Counted from the first letter of the stretch, positions 10,513-42,475 are shown. The stretch is DNA of 64,000 nucleotides from Candidatus Thorarchaeota archaeon (GCA_038893995.1 JAWAQK010000002.1:20529-84528); one strand, 5' to 3'. Made by a program: numbers and translations. The notes: generated from the letters alone by a model not told the origin.

Positions 10513-10800
10513 ATGGACTCCATAGGGCAAATGGTCAAGATGGGTCTTAGAGAAAGAGGCATCATCTGTCACTCTGCCTATGTGATTCATGAGGAGTCGG
10601 GATCGATCATACTCCTCTCATTTCCCGCCAAGGAGGGCAATTCCCTTACTCCTGCACGTGTGGAACGTGCACTGAACGCGTTGGGACTGGGTGAATTCTC
10701 AGTGCATAGTGATTTTGCTAGGCTGAGCGCAGCTTTCCTACACCTAGAGGTGTCCATGGGTTCAAGGACAGAATCCGAAAGAGAGAGCAGTGCTCGCTAG
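10513..10800 (+). CDS. Hypothetical small protein (95 aa)
   Basis: The only ORF in 10440-11015 and it does not overlap a better gene; no recognisable motif. Confidence 0.25.
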   Translation: MDSIGQMVKMGLRERGIICHSAYVIHEESGSIILLSFPAKEGNSLTPARVERALNALGLGEFSVHSDFARLSAAFLHLEVSMGSRTESERESSAR

Positions 10801-11015
10801 GGACCGCATCAACACAGTCTTTCCTTGCGTTGGAGCATGTCTCTAGTTCCAACTAGAGAATCCGCCCTTGCTATCTCATACGGCGGCGACTGAGTATTGC
10901 TGACCTGTGTGGACGTCAATTGACAGATTGGACTCCAACCATAAGTGCCGGCTGCCTGAACAACTTTCATGACCTATGGGGTCCATTAGTGCAGTTTGCA
11001 TGACTGTGCTTTTGA

Positions 11016-11160
11016 TGGCGGGCGCGCCAGGATTTGAACCTGGGACATCTTGCTTGCTTCAAGTGACCGTAGAAGACCATTCAAGGATCACAGACCGAAG
11101 GCAAGCGCCCTATTGGCTCTTCGAGGACAATGTCCCGAATCCAAACTAGACTACGCGCCC
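11016..11160 (-). tRNA. tRNA-Arg(TCG), probable, with about 70 nt of insertions: about 25 nt next to the D-stem/position 26 and about 40 nt at 37/38
   Basis: Minus-strand acceptor GGGCGCG/CGCGCCC with G and an encoded CCA. Intact T-arm CCAGG-TTCAAAT-CCTGG. Anticodon stem CTTGC/GCAAG with loop CTTCGG interrupted by about 40 nt. A second insert lies between D-stem 3' strand GGAC and the anticodon stem. Confidence 0.55.
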
Positions 11161-11217
11161 ACACCTACTGAGCTTGGATGTTTACCATAAGTACTTTGTC
11201 CACCTACTCATACAACC

Positions 11218-11457
11218 TTACCTTAAGCCCAACTCCTTCTGCCATGCTTCAATGAAGTGTTCCAGAGATCTATCGTAGGAAGACTCCGCATCCTTGGGGA
11301 ACAGACAACCGGGCAACTCACGATGTGACCAGTGGTACTGCAGACAATCACAACAACGTCCCTTTCGTGCACAGCCAGGATAGCTGCAGGTACAGTGTTT
11401 CAGATTCTTTTCAATCTTGCATTCCGCCATGGACATCCCGATCCCATCACAAAACAA
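11218..11457 (-). CDS. Small cysteine-rich protein with a C..GCAxxGxCC.C motif (putative redox/metal-binding)
   Basis: 79 aa containing CTCSYPGCARKGRCCDCLQYH, which matches the C_GCAxxG_C_C-type signature. Confidence 0.45.
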   Translation of the reverse strand: MFCDGIGMSMAECKIEKNLKHCTCSYPGCARKGRCCDCLQYHWSHRELPGCLFPKDAESSYDRSLEHFIEAWQKELGLR

Positions 11458-11512
11458 GTGAAAGGACCTTAAAACAGATTAGGTAACACATGGTCCGGAA
11501 CTCAGCAAGCAC

Positions 11513-12277
11513 ATGACATGGGAAAGTCGGATTGAAAAAGAGAAAGGAGACCGCCAAGTCATCAGTCTGGACCAGATGCAGTCTCTCGAGAGGATCATTG
11601 TACAAGGTTTCAACAGGAAGAGGTTTGTGATTCGGCGCAGGTTCCGAAGCAGAAAGAACACCGTCCTGCACATAAGAGTGATGTCGGATAGTGGGCCCGA
11701 TGAAGATATTGTTGCAAAGTTGTTTGAGAAGAACACCCTCAGTGTTGAACGCGATGTCCTCCTGGGTTGCACGGAAGCGGGGATTCCTGTCCCCAGGTTG
11801 ATTGCTGCTGACAACGACGTGATACTGATGGAGTACGTCCCAGGTGCGAACATGGTGGACCTAATCAATTGCAGCTACGCGGAATCGATGATAGACGCGC
11901 TTGCAGAATGGTACCACAGGTTCCACCACTCAATGAAACGAAACAGGGGCGACTCAATCCTGAGGAATTTTATCTGGACGCACCGAGGAGTGGTTGGGGT
12001 CGACTTTGAGGAGTCAGCATCAGGGGAATGGATTGACGATATCGCAGGGATTGCTGCGAGTCTTCTCGATACAGATCCAGTATTCGACGTGCGCAAGAGG
12101 GCTTTGGCCTGGCGGTTACTTGACAGATACCTGGCATGTCTGCGGGAGTGCAGGACCCGCGAACTCGAAAGAGTGTTCGTTGAGAGAGTAGCAGACTGTC
12201 TGTCACAGACCGCGGGGAAACGCAACAGCGTCGATATCCACCTGCTCTCTGAACGAGTCAGACGGAGAGGATTCTGA
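11513..12277 (+). CDS. Atypical protein-kinase-like protein (RIO/Bud32/Kdo-kinase-like fold)
   Basis: 254 aa with a hinge-like VILMEYVPG, a catalytic-loop-like DSILRN (D-x4-N) and a DFG-like VGVDFEES. Confidence 0.45.
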   Translation: MTWESRIEKEKGDRQVISLDQMQSLERIIVQGFNRKRFVIRRRFRSRKNTVLHIRVMSDSGPDEDIVAKLFEKNTLSVERDVLLGCTEAGIPVPRLIAADNDVILMEYVPGANMVDLINCSYAESMIDALAEWYHRFHHSMKRNRGDSILRNFIWTHRGVVGVDFEESASGEWIDDIAGIAASLLDTDPVFDVRKRALAWRLLDRYLACLRECRTRELERVFVERVADCLSQTAGKRNSVDIHLLSERVRRRGF

Positions 12278-12372
12278 GACTTGGTGAAACTGAAAAGTCC
12301 AGTACCGCCGATATCACAGTGCCATTCGAGGCCCCGGGGATGGGGGGCCCCGAACTTGGCCATTTGCAGTCG

Positions 12373-13062
12373 CTACCTAGCTGAGCGAGCTACTCGTTCG
12401 CGTTCGTCCTTTCTAGAAACTGCAAAGCTCGCAAGATCTCCCTTGTAGGCCAGAAGCAACTCATCTGCAATGCATTCTTCGAAGGACTTTGCACTGTTGT
12501 GCGTGTTTCTTGATGCCCCTACTACCAGATATCTGAGGGCGATGTCGATTCTACGCTGAGGTCCTATGTCCACGGATCTCGGGTATGCCATACCCCCATA
12601 TGATATTCTGGTCGTTTCCTCGGCAGGAGCTGCGTTCTCGATTGCAGTCACAAGAACCTGAATTGGATTCATTCCAGTGCGGTACTCTATCATCTCAAAG
12701 GCTCTTTTCACGAGTCCTATGGCTCTCGCCTTCTTTCCTGCATTGCGGCCAGTCCGCGTCTTCTTCTCTCGTCTATTGCCTCCGCTTAGGAGCTTGTTCA
12801 CAAATCTCTCAACAATCGGCACCTGCGACTTGTGAAACTTGCGATTTGCATGTCGCCCCGATGTATGTGGTATCAGCATGGGCTTGAGCGAGATATAGCG
12901 TCTGAGACCGACATCTTGCACTTGAACATCATCGGTACTCCATCTTCCAAACAGCAGGAACTTTTCTGCACTGCTATCCCCTGAATGCTGAGTGTCTGTT
13001 TCAATCGGTTTCTCGCCATTCTCCTCTGTAGACTCAGGGGTTCTTCTCTCATCTTCCGTCAT
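12373..13062 (-). CDS. rps7: 30S ribosomal protein S7 (uS7) with an N-terminal extension
   Basis: 229 aa, LLFGRWSTDDVQVQDVGLRRYISL ... conserved S7 core; immediately downstream of S12. Confidence 0.85.
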   Translation of the reverse strand: MTEDERRTPESTEENGEKPIETDTQHSGDSSAEKFLLFGRWSTDDVQVQDVGLRRYISLKPMLIPHTSGRHANRKFHKSQVPIVERFVNKLLSGGNRREKKTRTGRNAGKKARAIGLVKRAFEMIEYRTGMNPIQVLVTAIENAAPAEETTRISYGGMAYPRSVDIGPQRRIDIALRYLVVGASRNTHNSAKSFEECIADELLLAYKGDLASFAVSRKDERERVARSAR

Positions 13063-21841: not shown

Positions 21842-21972
21842 TGGCGGGCTCGGCGGGATTTGCTCCAATACCGAGACACGCTCGGTCCGATTGAACCCGC
21901 AACCCTCAGGTGTCTCTCTCGGTTTCCCTTGAGATAAAAGCCTGCTGCGCTGCCTGGTTGCGCCACGAGCCC
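21842..21972 (-). tRNA. tRNA-Lys(TTT) with two introns: about 23 nt at 37/38 and about 31 nt in the T-loop
   Basis: Acceptor GGGCTCG/CGAGCCC with G and an encoded CCA. D-arm GCGC-AACCAGGCA-GCGC. Anticodon stem GCAGG and loop CTTTTA, then an insert with a TCTC...GAGA hairpin. T-stem GCGGG/CCCGC flanks TTCAA[about 31 nt]AT. Confidence 0.6.
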
Positions 21973-32355: not shown

Positions 32356-33348
32356 TCAGTAGAGTGATCTGATACTATCAACAAGATCTTCGTCTGTGAA
32401 ATTGTCTAGGACCGAGTACCTTCCCCGCTTCTTCATTATTTCGAGCGCGTGATGTATGTCATCCAGGAACGTTTCCAAGGTGATCGGAAGCTCATGCAGC
32501 CTACAGGGTAATCCTCTAGTTCGCATGACCCGTCGGATCTTGTTCAAGTCATGGATCGCATATCCTATCTCCTCAAGAAAATGTACACATATGGGTGTTG
32601 CAAAGGCCACCTGTATCCCATGCAGGCCTACTCCTCTTCTATCCATCGCGTGAGATATGGCATGTTCTGTTCCAGAGCATGGTCTCGAGCTTCCTGCAAG
32701 ACACATCGCCCTTCCCGCGTCTATCTCGGCATGTACGAGTGTTTCCAAGTCATCGTGTTCTAGCACTTTGCAGAGCGCCGATGCCATTGTTCGATAGCTG
32801 TCCTCAACGAAGGACTCCCCCACTGCCTCAGCAGCAAGTTTCCACTCAGCTAGGCTTGATGCCTTACTGATAATGTCCCCTGTCCCGGCTCGTTTCAACT
32901 CCTTGGGTGCTCTTGACATTATGTCGAGGTCCGCAATGACGGCCACCGGAAGCTTGCACTTCCTAGAGTACCGGTAACCATTCTGACTTACGGAAGCCGC
33001 TTCGCTGGCAATTCCATCATGAGACGCTGCCGTTGGCACGGATATCCAATCTAGCCCAGTTTCGGCAGCTAGCAGCTTGGCCGTGTCGATACTCCGCCCT
33101 CCCCCGAAACCAAGTATGACCGACGCAGAATCGGTTTCGATCCCACGAATCTCGTGGGATGACAGCACCCATCTGATGTCTGATGAAACTATGCTCTCTA
33201 TCTGCTTTCTGTAGATGGACAGTATAGACTCGTCGGTGACACATATTACCCGATGTCCTGCGGTGTATTGTGAGAGCTTCTCTATCGCACCCCTTGCAAC
33301 TACTACATGGTTGGGACAAACATCGTTCATGTCAAGGACCCCTATCAA
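32356..33348 (-). CDS. egsA: Glycerol-1-phosphate dehydrogenase [NAD(P)+]
   Basis: 330 aa with GFGGGRSIDTAK and DHDG-like metal-binding residues; an archaeal lipid-backbone enzyme. Confidence 0.82.
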   Translation of the reverse strand: MIGVLDMNDVCPNHVVVARGAIEKLSQYTAGHRVICVTDESILSIYRKQIESIVSSDIRWVLSSHEIRGIETDSASVILGFGGGRSIDTAKLLAAETGLDWISVPTAASHDGIASEAASVSQNGYRYSRKCKLPVAVIADLDIMSRAPKELKRAGTGDIISKASSLAEWKLAAEAVGESFVEDSYRTMASALCKVLEHDDLETLVHAEIDAGRAMCLAGSSRPCSGTEHAISHAMDRRGVGLHGIQVAFATPICVHFLEEIGYAIHDLNKIRRVMRTRGLPCRLHELPITLETFLDDIHHALEIMKKRGRYSVLDNFTDEDLVDSIRSLY

Positions 33349-33467: not shown

Positions 33468-33965
33468 ATGACGCAGTACATCAAAGTTGCCCTTATGGGC
33501 TCTGGATATGCGGGAAAGTCCACGCTGATTAAGCTATTGACTGACACGCCCGCCAGGCTCGACGGCAATTACAAACCTACAGCCGGAATGGACTGTGGGA
33601 CCATCACACTCGATGGCGGAACAAAGATAACGTTAGTTGAAATGGGTGGTCAGAGCCATTTCGAGTTCCTATGGCCAGACTTCCTGCAAGGCAGTAGTAT
33701 GGTCGTGGTCGTCACCGAGAGCACCCCCAAGGCTGTCCTGAAAACCCGTCAACTGCTTGAGAGCTACAAGGACCATCTTGCTGGGCGTCAAGTAGTTGCA
33801 ATAGCTAACAAGCAAGACCTGCCAGGCTCGATGAAACCAGAGTCTGTACAAGATCTTCTGGGTGTCCCTACCTACGGCATGGTCGCGATAGACCCCAAAC
33901 AGAGAATGCAGGGCTACAAGGTATTGATCGAAGGTCTTAGAGGTCTGGTCCAAGTGGCAGGCTAG
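33468..33965 (+). CDS. Small Ras-superfamily GTPase (Arf/Sar/Rab-like)
   Basis: 165 aa with P-loop GSGYAGKST, switch I T in DCGT, DxxG as EMGGQ, and NKQD (ANKQDL). Confidence 0.7.
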   Translation: MTQYIKVALMGSGYAGKSTLIKLLTDTPARLDGNYKPTAGMDCGTITLDGGTKITLVEMGGQSHFEFLWPDFLQGSSMVVVVTESTPKAVLKTRQLLESYKDHLAGRQVVAIANKQDLPGSMKPESVQDLLGVPTYGMVAIDPKQRMQGYKVLIEGLRGLVQVAG

Positions 33966-36420: not shown

Positions 36421-37056
36421 ATGAGTGAAGAGGAAACTGCCGAGGTCAATCTTCTCATATCAATGGACAAGTATCTCGCCGCTGGTTGTCACATTGGCAC
36501 ACAGGTGAAGACGAAGGATATGGAACCATTCGTCTATCGACAGAGGCCGATTGGACTCTATGTCCTAGACGTACGGAAGACTGACGAACGGATTCGAACT
36601 GCTGCACGATTCATATCACGATTTGAGCCTGACAAGGTCGTCGTTGTTTCTGGAAGAGTCTACGGAAAACGTCCAGTTCAAGAATTTGCAAGGTACACTC
36701 GTGCAACTGCCTTCACTGACCGATTCGTGCCTGGCACATTCACCAACCCTCAGCTTGCTGGTTCAAGGCCATATACCGAACCAGAGGTAGTACTGATTAC
36801 GGACCCCCGTACAGATCAGCAGGCTCTTTCAGAGGCGTCTCGAATCGGTGTTCCTGTGATTGCTTTGTGCGATACCGACAATGTCACGACTAATGTAGAC
36901 CTGGTGATTCCGTCCAACAACAGGGGGCGTAAGGCGCTAGCCCTTGTGTACTACCTATTGACAAAGCAGGTCCTTATTGAGAGGGGTGAGATTCCCGCTG
37001 ATGGAGAACCTGCATTCACCCCCGATGACTTCGAACCTCAAGCACAGAAGCTCTAA
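36421..37056 (+). CDS. rps2: 30S ribosomal protein S2 (uS2); the ORF track extends to 36370
   Basis: LLISMDKYLAAGCHIGTQ ... LVIPSNNRGRKALALV; the ATG at 36421 lies 1 nt after the rpoN stop. Confidence 0.85.
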   Translation: MSEEETAEVNLLISMDKYLAAGCHIGTQVKTKDMEPFVYRQRPIGLYVLDVRKTDERIRTAARFISRFEPDKVVVVSGRVYGKRPVQEFARYTRATAFTDRFVPGTFTNPQLAGSRPYTEPEVVLITDPRTDQQALSEASRIGVPVIALCDTDNVTTNVDLVIPSNNRGRKALALVYYLLTKQVLIERGEIPADGEPAFTPDDFEPQAQKL

Positions 37057-37445
37057 CTGAGTATCGTGACTGTTCCATTGGTGGCATCAACTTCGGCAGT
37101 CCGTCCAGTTACGAGCTTGCTGAGATCTACTTTGTCAACTGCAGGTATTTCTCCAATGATACACCCTACCGCTACCACGGGGTCCATCGACTCATTGATG
37201 ATGGCAAGCGGCGCCTTTCCCGCCTTGCTCAACGCATAGAGAACGTATGAACCAACCGTGCTACCCTTTCCAGTTGGGAATGCAAGTATCTTGTTGGATA
37301 TCGATACTCCCTCGAGGGGGTGTCCTTTTTCTACGATCTGTCCCGTCTTTGGGTCGCATCCCCCGAAGAACGATATGTCCGATCTACTTACGAGGAGCTC
37401 ACCTGTGACCTTTCCCCTGAATATGCTACGACAACGAATGATCAT
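37053..37445 (-). CDS. AcnX small subunit (DUF126 swivel domain): phosphomevalonate dehydratase small subunit
   Basis: 130 aa from MIIRCRSIFRGKVTGELLVSRSDISFFGGCDPKTG ... The ATG overlaps the stop of the preceding AcnX large subunit (ATGA). Confidence 0.7.
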   Translation of the reverse strand: MIIRCRSIFRGKVTGELLVSRSDISFFGGCDPKTGQIVEKGHPLEGVSISNKILAFPTGKGSTVGSYVLYALSKAGKAPLAIINESMDPVVAVGCIIGEIPAVDKVDLSKLVTGRTAEVDATNGTVTILS

Positions 37446-38599
37446 CCCTGTACAGCCTCCCTTATGCACTCCTCCACGGTCCTTATCTCCGTCTTGAACT
37501 TGTTCTTCCCACGAGCATAGAAGCATGCCTTTGCTGAGTCTGTCATCAGACCCCTGAACATTCCCTTGAGTGGTGCAACTGCGCAACAGGCATCACTCAC
37601 TAGGAATGCTCCCGCTTTCTCAATCATGTCGTAATAGCCCATCTTGACGGCAAGCTCCTTCGTAGGTTTGGCCGTCGTTATCCACACAGTCTTTCCGTGT
37701 GCCACATGTTTCCCCCTAAGAAGTCGGGCAATCTCAGCGATTTCAGCTATGCTTGCATGCGGGCAACCAATGCTGATGAAGTCTATGTCTGCACCCTCGT
37801 CGTCCAGTTCCGCCTTTGCTTTCTCCAGGTCTTCCTGTGAGATAGTTTCGACCTTCTCTGGAATAGTTGTGCGGTTTGGTGTGATCCCCTCGATATGAAA
37901 GATCGCAACTCCTCCGTATGTTGCAATGGACGCGCAGAGCGCCTTCAGTTCATCGGTCGAGGCGCGTGATATGCCCTCAATGTACGGGATCGAATTTCTG
38001 GTCCTGTTACCAATTACCTGCCCGAGTAGTCCGAAGTCCACTGTATTCTCGAGCCTTGCCTCAACCAAGTACCTGACTTGAGCCATCCTATTCTTGTCTA
38101 GGTGAAGACCATATTCTGCTGTTCGGCCAGTCAGAGCTGCAGCGATTGCACTCGGTCCGCCCTCGCGGTTCGTATAGGCCCCAATGACGGAGTTCGCAAA
38201 ACAGACGGCGGAGGACTCTGCCCATGCAATGTGTTCGCCATAGTGTGGCAGATTACCGATCAGGTATGGTGTGCATGTGCAAGTCGTAATGACGCCCATT
38301 CTCCTGAATGCATCTATTACTCTCTCTTGGTCGCGTGCAAATTCCTCTGATATTCCGTGCTTTTTCCATTCTGTCAGGTCCATCCCTGCTGGGTTGAGGG
38401 TCGTCAGGACGCGTACTTGTCCGTCCTCCGCCATTTCTGCAAGGTACTCAAGGCCATACTCCCCTAGGTTGTCATAGGACACCCCTGCTATCTGAACACT
38501 GGAAACAGGTATGAGTCTTGTGGCACCATAGATCTCTCCCAATGCCGTAATGATCTCCATTGCCTTCCGGGTGGCCTTTCCGTACTCTCCATTCAGCAT
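37442..38599 (-). CDS. AcnX large subunit (DUF521 aconitase-X catalytic domain): phosphomevalonate dehydratase large subunit
   Basis: 385 aa of the aconitase-X family (SVQIAGVSYDNLG ... CTCTPY ... ISIGCPHAS). Confidence 0.75.
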   Translation of the reverse strand: MLNGEYGKATRKAMEIITALGEIYGATRLIPVSSVQIAGVSYDNLGEYGLEYLAEMAEDGQVRVLTTLNPAGMDLTEWKKHGISEEFARDQERVIDAFRRMGVITTCTCTPYLIGNLPHYGEHIAWAESSAVCFANSVIGAYTNREGGPSAIAAALTGRTAEYGLHLDKNRMAQVRYLVEARLENTVDFGLLGQVIGNRTRNSIPYIEGISRASTDELKALCASIATYGGVAIFHIEGITPNRTTIPEKVETISQEDLEKAKAELDDEGADIDFISIGCPHASIAEIAEIARLLRGKHVAHGKTVWITTAKPTKELAVKMGYYDMIEKAGAFLVSDACCAVAPLKGMFRGLMTDSAKACFYARGKNKFKTEIRTVEECIREAVQG

Positions 38600-38633
38600 G
38601 CGTTTCTCTTCAGATGTAAGTTCTAACGTGCCC

Positions 38634-39941
38634 TCATTCCTCCGAGTACTTTCTTATGTCGACCTCATGAAACTTGGCCTTCTCAAAGCTCTTTCCCTTC
38701 GTTGTCAGCTTCTTGGTACAATCAAAGCCTATCTTCGTCGTGAGCTTTGTATCGGGTTCGGCGCTAGGGTCCAGAGAGCTCCCAGGTTCGCGTCCTCTGA
38801 CTATCATGTCAGAGTCTCCCTGAAATCTGGTCGCCATTGCCCATTCTCGCTCTTGTTCATCATAGATGTCTATGTCATCGTCATACACCCAGACATGTTT
38901 TGCACTTGTGTGTCCTCGGAACGCACCTTCGATCGCCAGCTTTCCGTCATCGTCCTTTTGTTTCTTGATCTTGACTGCAACGTGTAGCCAGCTGGCACCT
39001 CCAGGAGTCATGCTGACATCGAGAACCTGAACTCCCTTCTCGCGCACGCTCTGGTATATCGTTGGTTCTCTCGGCATTCCCATGAGAATCTTGTGCTCAA
39101 GACGTCCTGGCAAGAGCGCCTGCCAAATGGCATTTCTTCTGTGCGTGATTCGCTTGACTTCAAATACTGGTTCTTGTCTTACCACATCGACGGTTTCCGT
39201 AAGGTCTATGAACGGGCCCTCAGCGGCCTTTTCATTCAAGTAGACTCTTCCCTCCAGAACAAACTCACAATCTGCGGGGATCCTTAGATCAACCGAACTT
39301 GCATGGGTCAGTCTTATGGGGCGCAAGGCATTGGCAATCTCGAGCTCATCGATCCCCGTCTTGACCGAAGTTGCAGCCGCTATCAATACCTCTGGCGTGT
39401 TTCCGACACAGAATGCGGCATCGAGTTCTCCAGCCCTCTGAAGGAACTTGTGAAAATCTCTGCCAGACACGATCCTCACTGAGAAATGTCGTGAGTCAAT
39501 CTGCATGGCTCTGTGGAAATCAAGGTTCTGTCCATACTCCGGATCCTTTGCAACAACAACAGCAGATGAAATGTAAGGCCCCCCGTCTACGACGTTATGT
39601 CGAAGTATTGGCAGATCGTTGAGATCGACAACGGATCTGGTGACCTCCTGGCACGGTGCTCCATCGATAAGCTCCGGAGGACTCCTCTTCTCAATGGCTT
39701 TAGCTAGTGTTGGTATGATGTCTTGAACACCTATGCCAAAGTAGTCTGCTATCTGTTGCTTTGTACAGAACAGGTTCCCCGCAACACGAAATGAAGACTC
39801 CTTTACCTTCTCGAAGAGAGCTGGCTTTGGTTCTAGACACTTGAGAATACCAGCAATCTCAAGATCCTTCGAAACTGCGGTCCTAATCGTTCGAATGCTT
39901 CCCTTTTTGATCAGTTGGTTGATGTATTCCTCTAGTATCAT
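38634..39941 (-). CDS. UbiD-family decarboxylase (candidate trans-anhydromevalonate-5-phosphate decarboxylase)
   Basis: 435 aa with UbiD-fold signatures; clustered with mvk and acnX. Confidence 0.7.
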   Translation of the reverse strand: MILEEYINQLIKKGSIRTIRTAVSKDLEIAGILKCLEPKPALFEKVKESSFRVAGNLFCTKQQIADYFGIGVQDIIPTLAKAIEKRSPPELIDGAPCQEVTRSVVDLNDLPILRHNVVDGGPYISSAVVVAKDPEYGQNLDFHRAMQIDSRHFSVRIVSGRDFHKFLQRAGELDAAFCVGNTPEVLIAAATSVKTGIDELEIANALRPIRLTHASSVDLRIPADCEFVLEGRVYLNEKAAEGPFIDLTETVDVVRQEPVFEVKRITHRRNAIWQALLPGRLEHKILMGMPREPTIYQSVREKGVQVLDVSMTPGGASWLHVAVKIKKQKDDDGKLAIEGAFRGHTSAKHVWVYDDDIDIYDEQEREWAMATRFQGDSDMIVRGREPGSSLDPSAEPDTKLTTKIGFDCTKKLTTKGKSFEKAKFHEVDIRKYSEE

Positions 39942-39950
39942 GCTCTCACC

Positions 39951-40892
39951 TCAGACTCCAAAGGATGTTACCCAGACATCCGTCGCTCCAGCTTCTCTCA
40001 ACGCGCCAGCGACAACTTGCGCTCCTTTCTCATCGTCAGTGAGTGCGATCATGTTGCCTCCCCTTCCTGTACCCGTGAGTTTTGCACCAACTGCACCTCG
40101 CCTGATTGCAGTGTCAACCAGAGTATCGAGTTCGGGACAGGACACGGTCAGCTGTTGAAGTAGTCTGTGGTTCTCATTCATTAGCTTTCCAACTCTCTTC
40201 TTGTCGAGCTCAAGTAGCGCATCTCGTGCTTGCACTATGAGCCTGTCATATTGTTGTAGAATATTGTCAAACCATGATCTATCACTCTGAGCCAGTCTTC
40301 TCACATCATCAACCACAGCTTTTGTACTAGATGTCAGACCCGTTGCTGCTATCACCAAGTTCAGAGGTCTTTTCAGTTTGAGAACCTCGAACACGGGCTT
40401 GTCGGAGGATGTGGGTTTCTGATACCACACTAGTCCGCCGAATGTGGAGGCCGTGTTGTCTATGCCCGACGGAGTGCCATGGTATCCCTTTTCCCCCTCG
40501 TACGCTGCGAGATTGATTTTTTCATCGTCGTAATTCAAATCGAACTCTTCGTTCAGTGCTCGCGCAATTGCTACACAGCTCGCAGCACTAGCGCCAATCC
40601 CAGAGGCACACACAAGATCTCCCGAAAGCTGTATGTGAATGCCTTTCTCTGAGAGATCTATGCCCATGTATCGAATTATGTTGTCTATCGATGCTGTCTG
40701 CTCGTCTGCTTTCTCTTTCTTGTAACCTGGTACTTCCGGGCGCAGGTCCTCAAGTTTCCATCCTGGTGTTGATGTTCGATGAACGGTGGCAATGGTTTCG
40801 GCAGAGATACCTGCGGCCAGTGCTGGTCTACCGTAGACCACAAAGTGTTCGCCAAAGAGAATGGCCTTGCCTTTTCCAGATCCTACAGCCAT
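39951..40892 (-). CDS. mvk: Mevalonate kinase (GHMP kinase)
   Basis: 313 aa, N-terminal GKAILFGEHFVVYG, GHMP motif ASGIGASAAS, C-terminal GAKLTGTGRGG. Confidence 0.85.
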   Translation of the reverse strand: MAVGSGKGKAILFGEHFVVYGRPALAAGISAETIATVHRTSTPGWKLEDLRPEVPGYKKEKADEQTASIDNIIRYMGIDLSEKGIHIQLSGDLVCASGIGASAASCVAIARALNEEFDLNYDDEKINLAAYEGEKGYHGTPSGIDNTASTFGGLVWYQKPTSSDKPVFEVLKLKRPLNLVIAATGLTSSTKAVVDDVRRLAQSDRSWFDNILQQYDRLIVQARDALLELDKKRVGKLMNENHRLLQQLTVSCPELDTLVDTAIRRGAVGAKLTGTGRGGNMIALTDDEKGAQVVAGALREAGATDVWVTSFGV

Positions 40893-41100
40893 GTTCTACA
40901 CGCCCTGTAGTTTGTTGATGCGACGACATTCGGTGCTTTTGAAGTCTTCCTTCGACGGATCACCAATCCCGAAAAGGCGTCTTCATCGTGCGTGGTTGTT
41001 CATGACTACACGGGCGATGTTGTCGCATGAGAACCAGGTCAGAGTCGTGGATTATTTGATAATATCAACTGCGGTCGTCGTCTGCTAGAATGTTACAATC

Positions 41101-41178
41101 TGGTGGGCCGGGCCGGATTTGAACCGGCGGCCTCTTGGTCCCGAACCAAGAATCATAGCCAATCTAGACCACCGACCC
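41101..41178 (-). tRNA. tRNA-Pro(CGG), intronless
   Basis: Acceptor GGGTCGG/CCGGCCC with A and an encoded CCA. D-arm GTCT-AGATTGGCTA-TGAT. Anticodon arm CTTGG-TTCGGGA-CCAAG. T-arm GCCGG-TTCAAAT-CCGGC. Confidence 0.9.
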
Positions 41179-42091: not shown

Positions 42092-42475
42092 ATGCTCTCG
42101 AGTCTTGAGATCGAGCTGCTCTCTGAACCACACCTAGCTCAGAAGGTCATCGAGTATTTCAAGGACAAGTACGGTAAGAGATTCATCAGCGCCCTAAGGG
42201 CGGCAGAAGAAGGAAGAGTCCTGAAGTACCAATTTGTCCCAAGTGGGGTGATCGCCTGGACTGTGCAGGGTCGCAAGCGGGAGTACCTTGTTGTCCCGGA
42301 GGTCTACTGCAGCTGCAGGAGTTTCTATCAGAGTGTTGTGATATCTCGGCAGTGTGACGTCTGCTACCATCTTTTGGCTCAGAAGATCGCCGAATCAAGA
42401 GGAACGTTCGTAACCAAACACCTTGATGATGACGCACGTCGAAGGCTCTACAAGTCCTGGCGACGTACAGACTGA
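42092..42475 (+). CDS. SWIM-type zinc-finger protein
   Basis: 127 aa with CSCRSF...C.VCYHLLAQ (CxC-x(n)-CxH SWIM signature). Confidence 0.5.
   Translation: MLSSLEIELLSEPHLAQKVIEYFKDKYGKRFISALRAAEEGRVLKYQFVPSGVIAWTVQGRKREYLVVPEVYCSCRSFYQSVVISRQCDVCYHLLAQKIAESRGTFVTKHLDDDARRRLYKSWRRTD

Follow-up and report, generated by a model that had tools for sequence, protein, structure and literature searches.

A probable translationally coupled mevalonate kinase, decarboxylase and dehydratase operon of the archaeal mevalonate pathway in Candidatus Thorarchaeota

The window analysed here is a stretch of 64,000 nucleotides from a Candidatus Thorarchaeota archaeon (GCA_038893995.1, JAWAQK010000002.1:20529-84528). 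Four genes follow one another on its minus strand (Table 1): a mevalonate kinase (MVK), a UbiD-family decarboxylase dependent on prenylated FMN, assigned as anhydromevalonate-phosphate decarboxylase (AMPD), and both subunits, large and small, of an AcnX-family enzyme, assigned as phosphomevalonate dehydratase (PMDh-L and PMDh-S). We are confident that this locus represents a co-directional, translationally coupled Thorarchaeota operon for three consecutive enzymes of the Aeropyrum-type archaeal mevalonate pathway. An earlier note on this DNA had described the same four genes on one strand, with gaps of 10 and 34 nt followed by an ATGA overlap; their positions, the 34-nt spacer and the overlap proved correct, but the first gap reads 9 nt (GGTGAGAGC). 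Within these nine nucleotides, GGTGA would be a Shine-Dalgarno-like element, judging by the 3' end of archaeal 16S rRNA. The PMDh-L stop and the PMDh-S start share the ATGA at 37442-37445, and PMDh-S begins at the ATG at 37445 (a mechanically called open reading frame, ORF, reaches 37586 via an upstream TTG). All four products are full length in comparison with their homologues. Because the spacers are short and the last two genes overlap, the layout suggests that the four genes share one transcript and that their translation is coupled; this transcript would begin within the 208 nt downstream of tRNA-Pro. At the distal end, the stop codon of PMDh-S (TAG, 37053-37055, minus strand) overlaps that of the convergent gene for ribosomal protein S2 (TAA, 37054-37056), which leaves no intergenic room for terminators. 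At other Thorarchaeota loci, gaps of between a few and about 40 nt separate the ends of the tblastn matches to PMDh-S and rps2.

The gene identities proposed earlier (MVK, UbiD, AcnX large and AcnX small) are upheld by profile matches far beyond chance. PMDh-L matches PF04412 with 487 bits, PMDh-S matches PF01989 with 119 bits and NF003046 with 168 (cutoff 163), and the decarboxylase contains UbiD_N, UbiD and UbiD_C, all full length, with 350 bits to TIGR00148 (cutoff 245). MVK reaches 237.1 bits with TIGR00549, the mevalonate kinase equivalog (cutoff 163.05), and the other GHMP equivalogs (galactokinase, homoserine kinase, PMK and archaeal PMK) remain far under their cutoffs. In the route that these assignments predict, MVK would convert (R)-mevalonate to mevalonate-5-phosphate (MVA5P), and the AcnX-L/AcnX-S heterodimer would dehydrate MVA5P to trans-anhydromevalonate-5-phosphate, using a [4Fe-4S] cluster that the large subunit would hold by C109, C279 and C338, and Ser62 of the small subunit as base. 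AMPD with its prenylated FMN would then yield isopentenyl phosphate with loss of CO2. Family scores, residues and synteny support this phosphomevalonate dehydratase / anhydromevalonate-phosphate decarboxylase route, which had already been put forward from the gene set.

One genome per species was scanned and the best 80 loci were retained, with neighbouring genes identified by tblastn; these 80 include no Aeropyrum, Methanosarcina or Thermococcus locus. AcnX-L directly follows UbiD in 66 of the 80 loci, the remainder being mostly cut by a contig end, and the full AMPD-PMDhL-PMDhS trio is present in about 60. The trio is adjacent in loci of Asgard archaea, DPANN, Chloroflexota and Gemmatimonadota, and in Methanosarcina too: the M. 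mazei genes that rebuilt the pathway in E. coli, MM_1526 (AMPD), MM_1525 (PMDh-L) and MM_1524 (PMDh-S) (PMC12547664), bear tags that run consecutively, in the order also found in the window. Such a distribution does not suit the earlier description of the cluster as a marker of lineage, at least for the trio; the layout in which MVK leads the operon and the operon converges on rps2 is, however, typical of Thorarchaeota. Thirteen Thorarchaeota-type loci from other assemblies show MVK-AMPD-PMDhL-PMDhS convergent on rps2, with glycerol-1-phosphate dehydrogenase about 4 kb further on, whereas in Promethearchaeota MVK stands after the trio and in a Hermodarchaeota locus rps2 lies upstream on the same strand.

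A Promethearchaeota (Lokiarchaeia-type) locus, L021, keeps the order AMPD-PMDhL-PMDhS (63% identity to the window for AMPD, 60% for PMDh-L, 51% for PMDh-S and 50% for MVK) within a supercluster (L021:6881-18593) that reads HMGS-HMGR-AMPD-PMDhL-PMDhS-MVK-IPK-IDI2, where HMGS and HMGR are HMG-CoA synthase and reductase; on the opposite strand Pfam matches identify UbiX-GGPPS-GGR, the last being a geranylgeranyl-reductase-like flavoprotein. Superclusters of this kind occur in at least 13 Promethearchaeota-type loci (e.g., L017, L019-L025, L029, L030, L034 and L039), and one DPANN genome has HMGR-HMGS-MVK-UbiX-AMPD-PMDhL-PMDhS-IPK-IDI2. UbiX adjoins AMPD in many bacterial and DPANN loci. The Promethearchaeota supercluster is genuinely complete, with MVK behind the trio and no neighbouring ribosomal cluster detected, whereas the Thorarchaeota locus comprises the four-gene core only. 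Two records with Promethearchaeota-type genes bear other names: L029 (the contig DATKTW010000113.1, 'Nanopelagicaceae bacterium') contains a full supercluster and L026 (the chromosome CP070835.1, 'Bathyarchaeota bin106') the AMPD, PMDh and MVK genes. These genes are 68-86% identical to those of L021 in both records, which are probably mis-binned or mislabelled.

The earlier description of the window as a complete gene cluster goes too far, as the four genes lead from mevalonate to isopentenyl phosphate only. A Pfam search of all large ORFs in the 64-kb window recovered no AA_kinase (IPK), Flavoprotein (UbiX), HMG-CoA synthase or reductase, FMN_dh (IDI2) or polyprenyl synthase, and six-frame tblastn with HMGS, HMGR, IPK, IDI2, UbiX, GGPPS and GGR of L021 gave no match in the window at 1e-6. 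The note was right that no UbiX adjoins the cluster, and none is present in the window either. IPK, UbiX, IDI, HMGS and HMGR would be encoded elsewhere in the genome.

We regard the UbiD-family protein as AMPD, with the activity as predicted, because it lies outside the clade of the furandicarboxylate decarboxylase HmfF, is adjacent to AcnX-L and AcnX-S, and belongs to superclusters in sister Asgard lineages. Genomic context is the strongest of these arguments. Residues N139, R144, E199, E241 and D246 do not vary among 33 members of its clade, and N147, R152, E254 and E259 of HmfF align with this set; we take the catalytic roles of the Asn/Arg/Glu core to be those known from Fdc1 and UbiD. In a search of 1.84 billion representatives, about 50 clusters were nearer to the window UbiD than HmfF is. 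Neighbour-joining trees, which are crude, built from representatives at 50% identity and without support values, place HmfF (6h6x) and its bacterial relatives in a group apart from the clade of the window UbiD. This clade is large and apparently mostly archaeal, although its taxonomy is thinly labelled (names were obtained for few of the 30 cluster representatives); it takes in a protein from Methanosarcinales as well as a Marsarchaeota cluster with 47% identity that bears the UniRef name 'Anhydromevalonate phosphate decarboxylase'.

Some observations weigh against the assignment and against the pathway as a whole. The nearest solved structure of the window UbiD is HmfF (6h6x, 4.5e-71), and JGI/KEGG-style annotation labels its relatives 'furandicarboxylate decarboxylase'. 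The case for orthology draws on synteny, on the clade into which the protein falls and on a name that UniRef assigned automatically, and the characterised AMPDs (APE_2078, MM_1526 and that of Ca. Promineifilum breve) stand outside the comparison; the terminal peptides of M. mazei AMPD deduced from primers (MTYRDFIG..., ...IIPEE) found no match among the retrieved proteins. With neither IPK nor UbiX found in the window, it is an assumption that the organism has a complete and functioning pathway. On the same structural and annotation grounds, the gene might encode a decarboxylase of aromatic or heteroaromatic acids, HmfF-like or similar, that is merely located among mevalonate genes. We consider this very unlikely. 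HmfF (6H6X/6H6V) does share the three-domain fold family and the Asn/Arg/Glu core with the window UbiD, its H296 and R304 have equivalents in H283 and R291, and the label '2,5-furandicarboxylate decarboxylase 1' is attached by JGI to many close relatives. However, the cluster representatives that outscore HmfF and its position in the other clade argue otherwise, as do the EGPFxD signature of the window clade against EGPFGE in HmfF and Trp318 in place of HmfF R331. The UbiD gene is, moreover, locked to PMDh-L and PMDh-S over several phyla, also inside full mevalonate superclusters, whereas HmfF has an unrelated genomic context, and genes of furan or aromatic catabolism are lacking near the window gene. 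The HmfF-type reading was rejected on account of the separate clade, the linkage to PMDh and the signature differences.

Among solved structures, the AcnX pair comes closest to the Thermococcus kodakarensis enzyme TkAcnX (7CNR/7CNS): PMDh-L matches TK1249 (7cnr_A) at 3e-106 with 48% identity, and PMDh-S matches TK1248 (7cnr_B) at 7e-36 with 54% identity. Like TkAcnX, the pair is split: one gene codes for the large subunit (domains 1-3) and its neighbour for the small one (swivel domain). Residues diagnostic of the archaeal type IIb enzyme TkAcnX, through its Fe-S cluster and MVA5P binding, have been listed, with Asn79 of the large subunit singled out as TkAcnX-specific (PMC8184944), and the A. 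pernix enzyme requires the three cysteines (PMC10040528). In global alignment, C109, C279 and C338 correspond to Cys110, Cys283 and Cys342 of TkAcnX (Cys122, Cys297 and Cys356 in A. pernix), which bind the [4Fe-4S]/[3Fe-4S] cluster, and the phosphate-binding residues G39-V40-S41, N44 and N69 of PMDh-L to Gly48-Val49-Ser50, Asn53 and Asn79. Further residues in contact with the substrate are retained in PMDh-L (A38, E128-S129-S130, K357 and Y361), and PMDh-S keeps the catalytic S62 together with T63 and V64. The residues by which AcnX of type I/IIa recognises hydroxyproline (At Thr72, Asp203, Trp35 and Ile206) are replaced by V64 (small), A38 (large), F27 (small) and S41 (large), and these four positions are of the TkAcnX type except that Leu27 of the small subunit is Phe27. 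The other difference from TkAcnX is an insertion of 9 residues behind the TTLNPAG motif. Because every listed residue maps and those of the hydroxyproline type are replaced, the pair is best assigned to AcnX type IIb, a phosphomevalonate dehydratase by prediction. The earlier note had named grouping with another AcnX subfamily as what would overturn its assignment; with all landmark residues of an MVA5P dehydratase present, no such grouping emerged.

That the pair is instead a hydroxyproline dehydratase appears extremely unlikely. The bacterial type I enzymes are plainly homologous, and the model for the dehydratase of cis-3-hydroxy-L-proline, NF051439, scores the two subunits at 295 and 82 bits; yet 295 bits is far under its cutoff of 700, the bacterial cis-3-hydroxy-L-proline dehydratases match more weakly (8e-58 for the large and 4e-16 for the small subunit), and TkAcnX scores nearly twice as high as they do. 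The third Fe-S ligand, Cys279, is of the PMDh type, unlike the site-C Cys of type I, and the phosphate-binding residues are present where the proline-recognising Thr, Asp, Trp and Ile are not. This reading was rejected on the NF051439 score, the PMDh-type residues and the context of MVK and AMPD. As a side observation, the NCBI gene table of the contig gives no product for the intact AcnX-large ORF (L002:11343-12497, equal to 37442-38599 of the window), and an exact look-up of the protein matched a Logan contig only; the missing entry may be an indexing or annotation gap.

MVK is closest among solved structures to that of Leishmania major (2HFS; 1e-77, 264 bits, about 46% identity), and M. mazei MVK (6mde) is far more distant (113 bits). 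The Leishmania protein is likewise a short form (about 315-330 aa), and the alignment shows GKxILFGEH(FVV), SGIGASA, (HGT)PSGxDNT(A) and (GAKL)xGTGRGG to be common to both. These are motifs of GHMP kinases, and the catalytic Lys and Asp are conserved as well. In contrast to the archaeal window MVK, the L. major enzyme has a eukaryotic (kinetoplastid) host, where it serves the classical PMK/DMD pathway. In the reciprocal search with the Leishmania protein, Euglenozoa came first and the next tier (45-49%) held a diatom, MMETSP protists and Thorarchaeota together. The window MVK, itself of the short type, is 43-50% identical to MVKs of Euglenozoa, diatoms and other protists and 49-51% to those of Promethearchaeota. 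A crude neighbour-joining tree without support values places the cluster-linked MVKs of Asgard archaea as sister to the Euglenozoa/diatom/protist group; two unnamed members of this tree lie on gene-sparse, eukaryotic-looking contigs. MVKs of some Asgard lineages, notably Heimdallarchaeia, have been reported to group with those of bacteria, eukaryotes and DPANN in one mixed clade (PMC11052028), and the eukaryotic mevalonate pathway has been linked to Asgard archaea (PMC12872458). The affinity of the window MVK to protist MVKs is consistent with these published links.

Among the best 80 loci, the nearest AMPD relatives beyond those labelled Thor, Promethearchaeota, Hod and Hermod come from Anaerolineae, two contigs binned as Gemmatimonadota and DPANN, and not from other archaeal phyla. 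The Anaerolineae proteins, on contigs of up to 2 Mb, are 52-61% (AMPD) and 55-69% (PMDh-L) identical to those of the window. About 35 Chloroflexota loci (within L033-L079, e.g., L059:10001-12942) carry the trio, often with UbiX adjacent and with no MVK within 10 kb, whereas in the window MVK comes first. An archaeal-type pathway in this bacterial phylum is cited in PMC13001223 as experimentally shown for Ca. Promineifilum breve (Kanno 2024), and the AMPD-PMDhL-PMDhS trio of the Chloroflexota pathway is common to Anaerolineae and the window. The two contigs binned as Gemmatimonadota (CAZBBK010000015.1 and CAZFNT010000032.1; L077:9407-13693 and L078) show UbiX-AMPD-PMDhL-PMDhS-IPK with a uniform G+C content of 65-70% in cluster and flanks; if the binning is right, they would put an archaeal-type lower mevalonate module into a second bacterial phylum. 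These relationships, from neighbour-joining trees without support values and with putative binning, suggest that the lower mevalonate module may have moved between domains.

More tentatively, and with considerable doubt, one may propose that an Asgard-specific lower mevalonate module was exchanged across domains in two ways, the AMPD-PMDh trio forming a sub-clade with DPANN, Anaerolineae and (by binning) Gemmatimonadota, and MVK having the kinases of Euglenozoa, diatoms and other protists as its sister group. If this were true, Asgard-like archaea would be donors of the bacterial 'archaeal-type' pathway, with a second bacterial phylum added, and Euglenozoa, diatoms and other protists would have inherited or acquired their type of MVK from Asgard archaea. 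Exceedingly improbable is that the window cluster itself is a recently transferred or decaying cassette outside the main isoprenoid route of the organism: the module does move between lineages, being common to Chloroflexota, Gemmatimonadota and DPANN at 51-61% identity, and the MVK is unlike the usual euryarchaeal type, but the four ORFs are intact, the G+C content stays level at about 0.50 throughout the region, and layout and neighbourhood (Lhr helicase, metallophosphoesterase, rps2 cluster and glycerol-1-phosphate dehydrogenase) recur in Thorarchaeota with 58-80% identity at the protein level, the pattern expected of vertical inheritance. Contamination or a foreign island was likewise rejected, given the conserved neighbourhood and the level G+C content.

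AMPD and MVK of the window are 100% identical to proteins of a 'Candidatus Thorarchaeota archaeon' MAG (assembly GCA_038825165.1). The surroundings of the operon consist of archaeal housekeeping genes. An RpoD-L18e-L13-S9-RpoN-S2 block converges on the PMDh-S gene and is followed by genes for an Arf-family GTPase and glycerol-1-phosphate dehydrogenase; farther out lie L7Ae-S28e-L24e, NDK, aIF5B, RNA polymerase A/B, MCM, RFC, PolD and others. Small GTPases of the Arf family are typical eukaryotic-signature proteins of Asgard archaea, and glycerol-1-phosphate dehydrogenase makes the archaeal lipid backbone. One tRNA match between the genes for RNA polymerase B and EF-1alpha is 128 nt long, and because of this length it suggests an intron-containing archaeal tRNA.

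Table 1. Features of the mevalonate operon and of its surroundings in the 64,000-nt window
Feature	Position	Strand	Size	Evidence or remark
Mevalonate kinase (MVK), operon gene 1	39951-40892	-	313 aa	TIGR00549; GHMP_kinases_N/_C
Spacer MVK/AMPD (GGTGAGAGC)	39942-39950	-	9 nt	Sequence read directly
UbiD-family prenylated-FMN-dependent decarboxylase, assigned AMPD	38634-39941	-	435 aa	Three UbiD domains; TIGR00148
Spacer AMPD/PMDh-L	38600-38633	-	34 nt	Sequence read directly
PMDh-L, AcnX type IIb large subunit (domains 1-3), predicted	37442-38599	-	385 aa	PF04412
PMDh-S, AcnX small subunit (swivel domain)	37053-37445	-	130 aa	PF01989; NF003046
Non-coding stretch between tRNA-Pro and MVK start	40893-41100	-	208 nt	Presumed operon promoter site
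tRNA-Pro(CGG)	41101-41178	-		ARAGORN and Rfam; 208 nt upstream of MVK start
Glycerol-1-phosphate dehydrogenase	32356-33348	-		About 4 kb from the operon; distance kept in Thorarchaeota loci
Arf-family small GTPase	33468-33965	+	165 aa	Between glycerol-1-phosphate dehydrogenase and RpoD; position kept in related loci
tRNA match	21845-21972	-	128 nt	Rfam (38.9 bits), not ARAGORN; between RNA polymerase B and EF-1alpha genes
ORF with CxC...CxH pattern, no Pfam match	42092-42475	+	127 aa	Conserved beside metallophosphoesterase gene in a related locus
ORF without Pfam match	11513-12277 (within 10550-12373)	+		Beside S7/S12 genes
ORF without Pfam match	11875-12363 (within 10550-12373)	-		Beside S7/S12 genes

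The archaeal mevalonate pathway has been described in A. pernix and M. mazei (Hayakawa 2018 and Yoshida 2020, as cited in PMC10040528 and PMC12547664). The window shares with both organisms the enzyme set from mevalonate to isopentenyl phosphate (MVK, PMDh and AMPD), to which IPK is added there. It differs from M. mazei, where MVK and IPK lie at MM_1762/1763 apart from the trio, in that MVK is joined to the trio as first gene, and also in the MVK subfamily and the Asgard host. Most Asgard archaea carry AcnX1, AcnX2 and AMPD (PMC11052028), and archaeal mevalonate genes beside a partial L18e ribosomal cluster have been reported from Odinarchaeota and Desulfurococcales (PMC10833476). Since both the pathway type of Asgard archaea and L18e-adjacent mevalonate genes have thus been published, the window operon is a further instance of an already known system, which adds one example and no discovery.

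Its value lies mainly in annotation. In the public record the gene appears as no more than a 'UbiD family decarboxylase', and relatives are wrongly labelled furandicarboxylate decarboxylase by pipelines; the synteny justifies naming the UbiD gene AMPD across Asgard genomes. As far as gene content can tell, the operon confirms that Thorarchaeota would use the ATP-saving archaeal route to isoprenoid precursors, which bears on the debates about Asgard archaeal membrane lipids and the origin of eukaryotic isoprenoid synthesis, points that have already been published (PMC11052028, PMC12872458).

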